Assembly (NCBI GenBank): GCA_000004695.1
Contig: CM000154.2
Span: 2,912,001 to 2,976,000, forward strand
Origin: Dictyostelium discoideum
Lineage: Eukaryota
DNA: 64,000 bases
Direction of reading: 5' to 3'
In this document: positions 42,954 to 62,333 of the stretch, in pieces
Numbering within the stretch: position 1 is the stretch's first letter
Layout of the letters: each line of letters starts with the position of its first letter
The notes under the pieces: generated by a model
What the model saw: only the letters and a program-made list of their open reading frames with translations
What the model was told of the DNA's origin: nothing
Database searches by the model: none
Made by a program: the position numbers and the translations under genes

Positions 42954-43803
42954 TTATTTGTGAAAGTTTGTTATGAAAAATAAAAAAAAAAAAAACTATT
43001 TGGATTTTTTTTTTTTTTTAATTTTTTTTTTTTATTTTGAGCATGTCATGACCCATTTTTTATTTTTATTAGAAAATTATTGATGAATTTTTGGGGTTTT
43101 TTTTTTTTTTTAATTTTTTTTTTATTTTCCAATTTGTTTTATCTTTTAAATAAATAAATCAATTCCAATACCAATTTTTTTTTTTTATATTAAATTTTGT
43201 AATTATTTTATTTATTTATTGTTTTTTTTTATTCAATTTTAATTATTTGTTTTAAAAAATAATTTAACAATCCAATAATTCTTTAATAACACAAACTATG
43301 AAATCAAATTCCAGTCCTTAAAATTCTAAATTACCGGATAATTTTTTTAATAACCTTGCACAATTAATTATGCGTGTTCGATTAATGTTTTTTTTTTTTT
43401 TTTTATACAAAGATTATTTTGGTTTGATTGTATTCCAAATTTTTTTTTTTTTTGAATTGGATAACGCAATTATTATTTGCTTCTCCTTGAGATGCTAGAT
43501 CTCATTTTATTTTATTTTTTTTTTTTTTTTTACAGGGTCTCTAAAAGAGGGGTTAGTTTACTTTTTTTTTTTTTTTTTTTTTTTTGTTTCGAATTTTGAA
43601 TTGTATTATTACTTTTGATTAAAACATCTTTTTTGTCCAAACTTTTTTCTAAATCTTTTTTTATTTTATCGTCTGGTTCGTGATTGATGTTTATGACGTA
43701 TTTGAATTGTTTTTTTTTTAATTGAGTTTTATCCACAATTTCGCTTATTTTTTGTAGGCATTTGTGTTGCTTAATATTTGTGGTGTTGTTTGTGATTTTC
43801 ATT

Positions 43804-43903
43804 NNNNNNNNNNNNNNNNNNNNNNNNNNNNNNNNNNNNNNNNNNNNNNNNNNNNNNNNNNNNNNNNNNNNNNNNNNNNNNNNNNNNNNNNNNNNNNNNN
43901 NNN
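43804..43903. other. Assembly gap (100 N) at the left edge of a tandem repeat array
   Basis: Run of n. Confidence 1.
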
Positions 43904-44640
43904 CAATAAAGTAAAAAGATGGCTTTTTAAGATAGTTTATTTATTTATTTATTTGTTTTTTAAGTCTTTTTTATATGAAAAATGAAATAATCAAAAAAAG
44001 AGATTGTTGTTGTTGTTTGTTTTTTTTCGATCTGATTATTTTTTGCTTTTTTTTGAAAATTTTGCTACGCAAAATTCTCAAAACGAAACAAATAATAAAT
44101 TACAATAAAGTAAAAAGATGGCTTTTTAAGATAGTTTATTTATTTATTTATTTGTTTTTTAAGTCTTTTTTATATGAAAAATGAAATAATCAAAAAAAGA
44201 GATTGTTGTTGTTGTTTGTTTTTTTTCGATCTGATTATTTTTTGCTTTTTTTTGAAAATTTTGCTACGCAAAATTCTCAAAACGAAACAAATAATAAATT
44301 ACAATAAAGTAAAAAGATGGCTTTTTAAGATAGTTTATTTATTTATTTATTTGTTTTTTAAGTCTTTTTTATATGAAAAATGAAATAATCAAAAAAAGAG
44401 ATTGTTGTTGTTGTTTGTTTTTTTTCGATCTGATTATTTTTTGCTTTTTTTTGAAAATTTTGCTACGCAAAATTCTCAAAACGAAACAAATAATAAATTA
44501 CAATAAAGTAAAAAGATGGCTTTTTAAGATAGTTTATTTATTTATTTATTTGTTTTTTAAGTCTTTTTTATATGAAAAATGAAATAATCAAAAAAAGAGA
44601 TTGTTGTTGTTGTTTGTTTTTTTTCGATCTCATTGTATTC
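43904..44640. repeat. Tandem repeat array, 199-bp unit, 3.7 or more copies (left side truncated by gap). The array ends about 40-50 bp upstream of tRNA-Pro.
   Basis: Track ORFs 43975, 44174 and 44373 are identical and spaced 199 nt. Unit: aaaaatgaaataatcaaaaaaagagattgttgttgttgtttgttttttttcgatctgattattttttgcttttttttgaaaattttgctacgcaaaattctcaaaacgaaacaaataataaattacaataaagtaaaaagatggctttttaagatagtttatttatttatttatttgttttttaagtcttttttatatg. The last copy diverges after …ttttttttcgatct. Confidence 0.95.
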
Positions 44641-44679
44641 CAAATAATTTTAAGCGTTCCAAATCCCAAATTTCAAAAT

Positions 44680-44750
44680 GGGAGATTAGTTAAGTGGTAT
44701 AATGCTACCTTTGGGTGGTAGCGTCCTGAGTTCGATTCTCGGATCTCCCC
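44680..44750 (+). tRNA. tRNA-Pro (anticodon UGG), 71 nt without CCA
   Basis: Cloverleaf read by hand:
- Acceptor GGGAGAT/ATCTCCC (7 bp), discriminator C.
- D-arm GTTA-AGTGGTA-TAAT.
- Anticodon stem CTACC/GGTAG with loop TTTGGGT, giving anticodon TGG.
- T-stem CTGAG/CTCGG with loop TTCGATT (B box).
An identical copy lies on the minus strand at 58447..58517. Confidence 0.85.
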
Positions 44751-44781: not shown

Positions 44782-44790
44782 GTTCGATTC
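44782..44790 (+). promoter_or_regulatory. Putative external B box (ex-B) downstream of tRNA-Pro
   Basis: GTTCGATTC about 32 bp downstream of the tRNA 3' end, within a 3' flank (atcttttaagatccgaa.caatagat.acatgttcgattcctata) conserved at both tRNA-Pro copies. Extra B boxes downstream of tRNA genes are an established feature of D. discoideum tRNA loci. Confidence 0.5.
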
Positions 44791-44899
44791 CTATATTTAT
44801 TTGGTATTCAAACTCTAATTTTTTAATATTTTAAAAAAAAAAACAAAAAAAATAAAAAAGTTTTTTTGGAGTAATTTAGGGTTGGCAATGTCCCTAGAG

Positions 44900-44932
<33 letters not shown>

Positions 44933-45192
44933 GACCCAAAATGACCTAAAATTTTTTTTTTTGACCCAAGATGACCCAAAATTTTTTAATTTGGCATTAT
45001 TTACTAAAAAAAAAAAAAAAAACTTAAAAAATTAAGAAAAATAAATTTAAAAAAATAGAAAAATTTTGATAAGATATTTTTGTATTCTAAATTTTTGATT
45101 AGTTTTTTTTTTTTTAGGTTTTCTTTTTTTTTTTTTTTTCATCATTTTTTTATATAAAATAAAATTAGATTTATAATTTTTATTCTCAAATC

Positions 45193-50176: not shown

Positions 50177-50276
50177 NNNNNNNNNNNNNNNNNNNNNNNN
50201 NNNNNNNNNNNNNNNNNNNNNNNNNNNNNNNNNNNNNNNNNNNNNNNNNNNNNNNNNNNNNNNNNNNNNNNNNNNN
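50177..50276. other. Assembly gap (100 N)
   Basis: Run of n. Confidence 1.
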
Positions 50277-58446: not shown

Positions 58447-58517
58447 GGGGAGATCCGAGAATCGAACTCAGGACGCTACCACCCAAAGGTAGCATTATAC
58501 CACTTAACTAATCTCCC
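58447..58517 (-). tRNA. tRNA-Pro (UGG), second identical copy, minus strand
   Basis: The reverse complement of 58447-58517 is identical to the 44680-44750 tRNA. The 3' flank, including the ex-B box gttcgattcc (complement of 58406-58415), is conserved. Confidence 0.85.
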
Positions 58518-62233: not shown

Positions 62234-62333
62234 NNNNNNNNNNNNNNNNNNNNNNNNNNNNNNNNNNNNNNNNNNNNNNNNNNNNNNNNNNNNNNNNNNN
62301 NNNNNNNNNNNNNNNNNNNNNNNNNNNNNNNNN
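62234..62333. other. Assembly gap (100 N)
   Basis: Run of n. Confidence 1.

Follow-up and report, generated by a model that had tools for sequence, protein, structure and literature searches.

A 199-bp tandem repeat upstream of a Dictyostelium discoideum tRNA-Pro gene as the probable A-module array of a TRE5-A retrotransposon interrupted by an assembly gap

Results

The window, by which we mean the whole 64-kb stretch of AX4 chromosome 5 analysed here, contains two tRNA-Pro genes separated by 13,767 bp. The S2 table of PMC5391098 gives the same spacing for ProUGG-13 and ProUGG-14, which places the window at 2,912,001-2,976,000 of the chromosome; its assignment to AX4 comes from the flanking gene DDB_G0289561. 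ProUGG-13, at 2956680-2956750 of the chromosome, is the integration landmark of the element described below (Table 1). Upstream of this gene, Tandem Repeats Finder (TRF) identified a single array at 43904-44634 with a period of 199, 3.7 copies, 99% matches, no indels and a score of 1455; of this, 3.66 near-identical 199-bp units could be delimited. No difference was detected among the three full units of the window, and the 35-nt unit core GAAAATTTTGCTACGCAAAATTCTCAAAACGAAAC occurred three times in the 64 kb, each time inside the array, against an expectation of 0 in shuffled sequence. Read 5' to 3' on the minus strand, the partial unit begins with GAGATCGAAAAAAAAC at 44631. This is the final element-derived base, and exact base counting placed it 48 bp from the tRNA +1 at 44680; at its first base the element carries a G instead of the C found in the repeat unit. 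The window ORF scan found no ORF of at least 80 aa overlapping the array. A previous sequence-only reading had described at least 3.7 near-identical, non-coding 199-bp units beside an assembly gap, ending some 40-50 bp before the tRNA 5' end, and the count of units, the distance and the lack of coding capacity were all borne out.

Table 1. Features assigned around ProUGG-13 and elsewhere in the window (window coordinates).
Feature	Position	Strand	Remarks
TSD, distal copy ATTGTATTCCAAAT	43427-43440		exact 14-bp direct repeat of 44632-44645, spacing 1205
Poly(A) tail	43441-43453	-	plus-strand T-run 43440-43453, 13-14 A; A14 in orthologous copy
C-module, 3' terminal, 137 bp, ending ...GCGTTATCCAATTC	43454-43590	-	published length 137 bp
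3' B-module, visible 213 bp	43591-43803	-	ORF1 start codon and first ~70 codons duplicated; remainder of module in gap
90-aa ORF	43802-43530	-	reads into C-module
100-N assembly gap	43804-43903		borders array on tRNA-distal side
A-module array, visible tip	43904-44631	-	99-nt partial unit, three full 199-bp units and 32 nt to gap
TSD, tRNA-proximal copy ATTGTATTCCAAAT	44632-44645		adjoins last repeat-derived base 44631
tRNA-Pro(UGG), ProUGG-13	44680-44750	+	ARAGORN; Rfam RF00005, 57 bits
B-box-like GTTCGATTCC	44782-44791		~32 bp 3' of the tRNA gene
30-bp unit TTTTTTTTTTTGACCCAAAATGACCCAAAA, 2.2 copies	44922-44987		~170-240 bp 3' of the tRNA gene
Other 100-N gap	50177-50276		~30 bp in gap-free assembly
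tRNA-Pro(TGG), ProUGG-14	58447-58517	-	second tRNA-Pro gene
Other 100-N gap	62234-62333		~82 bp in gap-free assembly

The two sides of the gap were found to be the two ends of one minus-strand element, with a TSD enclosing 43441 to 44631; the T at 43440 can be assigned either to the end of the TSD or to the tail. In the C-module, the bases T15, C26, A35 and C38, counted from the 3' end, match all four published TRE5-A.1 wild-type bases (PMC3159450), and among the 21 offsets tested a complete match was confined to the correct register. All four bases fall within stems of the predicted fold, which is weakened by the published double mutations and has an energy of -16.9 kcal/mol at 22 C (ViennaRNA) compared with the published -20.08 (mfold). 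The stretch 43442-43803 is 97.8% identical to element 3' ends at two other loci, L001 and L002. Its B-module part (43591-43803, 213 bp) shares 99.5% identity with the two ORF1 starts of L002 and with that of L004, which runs on past the equivalent of 43803 into the other ~80 bp of the B-module and the ORF2 stop. In L002, a 444-aa ORF (ORF1) precedes a 1047-aa RVT_1 ORF, and the minus strand of the repeat unit shows a 96% match to the DNA directly upstream of B/ORF1.

The 90-aa ORF beside the gap matched only short D. discoideum "hypothetical proteins", and arises as a by-product of the duplication of the ORF1 start in the 3' B-module. Several assemblies list relatives whose ORF1 start is 66-100% identical as "hypothetical proteins", DDB_G0282561 and DDB_G0280833 among them, and the two such protein loci that were examined (P0002 and P0003) lie on a 3' B/C end. 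These short proteins sharing the B-module ORF1 start are probably spurious gene calls.

The same locus was located in GCA_054883475.1, a gap-free assembly of the same lineage, through the orthologue of the flanking gene DDB_G0289561 (giving L004) and through an ORF1 protein look-up, which returned three overlapping loci (L012-L014) that tile the site at CM142511.1:3,021,788-3,044,156. The same insertion is present there, flanked by the same TSD and with junctions identical to those of the window. The left flank in L004 is 99.69% identical up to 43803; over 5.8 kb it shows 3 mismatches and 3 homopolymer indels. From 43904 onwards the window is matched by L014, whose right flank, tRNA and first 3.66 units are 99.93% identical. 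The element measures 22,369 bp on CM142511.1, of which the window shows 1,078 bp, and it is ordered as a partial A-module, 36 A-modules, three B-ORF1-ORF2 bodies, a further B-module, a C-module and A14, followed by the TSD.

According to TRF, the L014 array comprises 36.5 units over 7.27 kb and is followed by an A-run, the B-module and ORF1. When the units were delimited by anchor-based splitting, 32 of the 35 full units were identical to those of AX4, and the remaining three had one extra A in a homopolymer. The three ORF1 (444 aa)/ORF2 (1047 aa) pairs recur with a period of ~4.89 kb and are connected by B-to-B joints, in which the ORF2 stop is followed by an A-run, B and ORF1; no C-module, poly(A), A-module or TSD was found between the three coding bodies of the composite. 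ORF2 gave an RVT_1 match (E=2.5e-33) and a weak Exo_endo_phos match (E=0.21), and ORF1 matched no Pfam family, in line with the literature. A second locus with a B-to-B tandem and at least two coding bodies was observed at L002:1-10358.

On the evidence of this sister assembly, the AX4 gap would stand for ~21.3 kb, consisting of ~32.9 A-modules and three B-ORF1-ORF2 units. The sequence-only reading had proposed that the assembler collapsed additional copies of the unit. By GCA_054883475.1 this is correct for ~33 further units but incomplete, as ~14.8 kb of coding sequence in the three B-ORF1-ORF2 bodies is hidden as well.

The ORF1 look-up also yielded a census of ten places from that one assembly, covering eight TRE5-A loci, ProUGG-13 included. 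The seven other loci are all arranged head-to-head with a tRNA gene (Table 2), and five of the arrays begin 39-48 bp from it. At these seven loci, as in L014, the 199-bp unit is continuous with a B-module and the ORF1 ATG. All 52 complete 199-bp units, from six loci including ProUGG-13, were identical. Each census element has its own TSD of 13-16 bp, and the other TRE5-A copies all end in ...CCAATTC followed by an A-run. Nearly all copies share the 5' start (G/C)AGATCGAAAAAAAAC; two begin 6 nt further in, and several bear an extra 5' G that is absent from the unit template.

Table 2. A-module arrays at the seven other TRE5-A loci of the census.
tRNA gene	A-module units	Array start
Lys-CUU	1.47	48 bp from tRNA
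Thr-CGU	about 1.5	about 47 bp from tRNA
Val-AAC	3.5	44 bp from tRNA
Ser-UGA	3.5	47 bp from tRNA
Tyr-GUA	10.5	39 bp from tRNA
Val-UAC	7.5	behind older C-module fragment
Val-UAC, second locus	about 2.5	behind older 5'-truncated TRE5-A copy (re-integration tandem)

Tandems of another kind were also observed, at L007:6776-9400, L008:15238-18960 and L015:8260-8400, where TRE5-A follows TRE5-A by repeated integration at one tRNA gene. Between their copies, these re-integration tandems retain a C-module, poly(A), re-used target sequence and a new A-module. The target sequence stands after successive copies, for example as GATTAATCACCAAT, or as GTTTTGTAATT four times, demonstrating that the nick site was re-used.

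Around the second tRNA-Pro gene, ProUGG-14, the window contains no copy of the unit and no TRE5-A upstream. The two tRNA-Pro loci are ~94% identical over 161 bp, flanks included. An external B box is typical of Dictyostelium tRNA genes, and the B-box-like motif of Table 1 was found ~32 bp 3' of both. The 30-bp repeat downstream of ProUGG-13 lies roughly in the TRE3 insertion zone; this region aligns at ~70% with other isolates, which argues that the repeat is probably not a recent insertion. The other two 100-N gaps of the window correspond to nothing substantial in the gap-free assembly.

Two divergent D. discoideum isolates (L003:14190-14640 and L005:14225-14420) have another occupant upstream of the orthologous tRNA-Pro, a ~200-bp piece from the 3' part of a different poly(A)-tailed element, ending in ...CTAGAATAGTACTGCTCTTT-A11, and L003 carries an additional nested repeat of ~240 bp that was found again in L001 and L011. 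No empty-site allele was found at the ProUGG-13 orthologue in these two isolates. The presence of different occupants at the same tRNA-Pro marks the site as a polymorphic insertion hotspot.

Discussion

The 199-bp repeat is almost certainly the A-module array at the 5' end of a minus-strand TRE5-A (DRE) non-LTR retrotransposon at tRNA-Pro(UGG)-13, a name given here from published anatomy, sizes, position and the four-base fingerprint of the C-module. TRE5-A.1 has the layout AB-ORF1/ORF2-BC, with an A-module of 200 bp, a B-module of 290 bp and a C-module of 134-137 bp; the A-module is the plus-strand promoter, transcribed by RNA polymerase II to give the template RNA, the B-module carries the ORF1 start, and the terminal stem-loops of the C-module are essential for retrotransposition (PMC3159450). 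ORF2 of TRE5-A encodes an endonuclease, a reverse transcriptase and a zinc finger. At ProUGG-13 the A-module is 199 bp long and precedes B and the ORF1 start, the junction being seen in GCA_054883475.1, and the C-module agrees with that of TRE5-A both in its 137-bp length and in all four stem-loop bases.

The position and orientation of the element also conform to TRE5-A. TRE5-A.1 integrates ~50 bp upstream of tRNA genes, its 5' end directed toward that of the tRNA (PMC3159450), and 59% of 98 reference copies lie within 47+/-3 bp, typically with TSDs and non-templated 5' nucleotides (PMC5391098). The 48 bp counted here fit this rule; the A-modules lie beside the tRNA, the C-module and poly(A) are distal, and the element is on the strand opposite the tRNA. 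The run of A13-14, the 14-bp TSD and the 5' G in place of the C of the unit are hallmarks of target-primed reverse transcription. A TRE3 element was rejected as a candidate, given that the array is upstream of the tRNA and TRE3 integrates ~100 bp downstream.

The sequence-only reading had favored a tandemly repeated UTR module of a tRNA-targeted, TRE5-type element, and had called for a check of other tRNA loci for the same unit. Its preferred interpretation is supported by the continuity of the unit with a B-module, ORF1 and an RVT_1-containing ORF2 in GCA_054883475.1, by the TRE5-A 3' B- and C-modules, poly(A) and matching 14-bp TSD across the gap, and by the identical unit upstream of seven other tRNA genes. 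With both a match to a TRE and recurrence at tRNA genes, that interpretation clearly stands.

Tandem A-modules are not new in themselves. Marschalek et al. in 1992 reportedly described the tRNA-proximal repeat of DRE as AnB, in which a single B-module follows one A-module or several, and the same arrangement occurs at ProUGG-13 and the census loci. If AnB was already part of the original DRE description, tandem A-modules were already known. To our knowledge, B-to-B concatemers of the coding body do not form part of that description. The array at ProUGG-13 would belong to a known kind; its size and the B-to-B concatemer may be undescribed. The copy differs from the other seven TRE5-A loci in having 36.5 A-modules rather than about 1.5-10.5, and from a canonical TRE5-A in that its body is triplicated head-to-tail, bringing the total in GCA_054883475.1 to 22.4 kb, compared with about 5.6 kb. 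An analogy in function only is provided by mouse LINE-1, whose 5' UTR has a variable number of ~200-bp tandem promoter monomers, the first usually partial; its sequence and host are unrelated and it is without tRNA targeting.

Published work describes TRE5-A integration as target-primed reverse transcription at a site ~47 bp upstream of tRNA genes, with targeting through binding of the ORF1 protein to TFIIIB. The composite at ProUGG-13 would have begun with one such integration, the 5' end toward the tRNA, and the A units and the B-ORF1-ORF2 body would then have been amplified internally. This order of events is suggested by the single TSD pair around the 22.4-kb composite and by the lack of internal C-modules, poly(A) and TSDs. 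The TRE-TRE tandems produced by repeated integration (PMC5391098) likewise place several bodies in a row upstream of one tRNA gene. The ProUGG-13 composite has no internal C-module, poly(A), re-used TSD or A-module, and is thus not a tandem of that type. Either unequal homologous exchange or slippage during replication, acting on identical repeats, namely the 199-bp A units and the ~300-bp 5' and 3' B-modules, would have driven the amplification, and the B-to-B joints look like the outcome of unequal exchange between the 5' and 3' B-modules. We consider growth of the A-array and the B-to-B concatemer by these routes the most likely explanation, at a probability somewhat better than even.

A less probable but still tenable explanation is that the multi-unit array was inherited, either through full-length RNA of a source element with many A-modules or through template switching of the reverse transcriptase between A units or B-modules during one integration. 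The arrays of 3.5, 7.5 and 10.5 units share their start position with the single-module copies, as if whole arrays had been copied from the first unit, and the units are identical at all loci. Template jumping by non-LTR reverse transcriptases is, moreover, an established phenomenon. However, none of the eight loci sampled holds a source element of 36 units or more, a cDNA of 22 kb would be exceptional, and the concurrence of the largest A-array and a B-to-B concatemer at one locus points to a recombination history of that locus. As all 52 units are identical, variants cannot separate local expansion from the inheritance of a long array. The common 5' end (G/C)AGATCGAAAAAAAAC probably marks a transcription start inside the unit; such a start inside each unit would explain why every array has the same leading partial unit.

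The size of the element in AX4 itself has to be considered separately. The AX4 gap might hide only a single canonical TRE5-A of about 5.6 kb with few A-modules, the expansion in GCA_054883475.1 being either later or an error of the long-read assembly. Tandem arrays of identical units are unstable and hard to assemble and can change between sublines, and the single homopolymer A by which three of the 35 full L014 units differ resembles a read error. Against this, sequence differences in 5.8 kb of flank are limited to 3 mismatches and 3 homopolymer indels, both junctions are exactly common to the two assemblies, L002 likewise has a B-to-B tandem, and the AX4 assembly is broken at exactly that position, as would be expected of a repeat too long to bridge. 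On balance, a short element behind the gap appears unlikely. The broader proposition, that ProUGG-13 is an outlier TRE5-A locus with a large DNA-level amplification (36.5 promoter modules, a triple B-ORF1-ORF2 and 22.4 kb) hidden from the reference genome, is in our estimate distinctly improbable. The copy might also be a recombination-prone hotspot, its length varying between laboratory sublines.

Assignment of the element to TRE5-B or TRE5-C instead of TRE5-A is very improbable. A C-module is also found in TRE5-C, with 78% identity over its terminal part, and the integration position is shared, but a duplicate B-module in the 3' UTR has been described for TRE5-A only and is lacking in TRE5-B and TRE5-C (PMC3159450), and such a second B-module, followed by the C-module, is present at ProUGG-13. 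The length and the four bases of the C-module also favor TRE5-A.1, as does the canonical census copy of about 5.62 kb, compared with the numbering of TRE5-A.1 to nt 5647 (PMC3159450). That the array is an unrelated satellite merely abutting the tRNA gene, the alternative considered in the sequence-only reading, can be practically dismissed: within the window the gap does separate the array from any coding sequence, but in L014 the array runs directly into the B-module and ORF1, the unit is located only at the 5' ends of TRE5-A copies at the census loci, and the array and the B/C/poly(A) end lie within one TSD pair.

The main value of these results is for curation: the 100-N gap at AX4 chromosome 5 ~2,955,8xx would represent a TRE5-A body, about 21 kb in length judging from the sister assembly, and the 199-bp repeat should be masked as the TRE5-A A-module. 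For the biology of the element, the gap-free assembly indicates that the A-module number ranges from about 1.5 to 36.5 while the 5' start is constant, and that B-to-B concatemers exist. This range of A-module number, together with the concatemers, could inform work on promoter dosage and recombination instability in TRE5-A.
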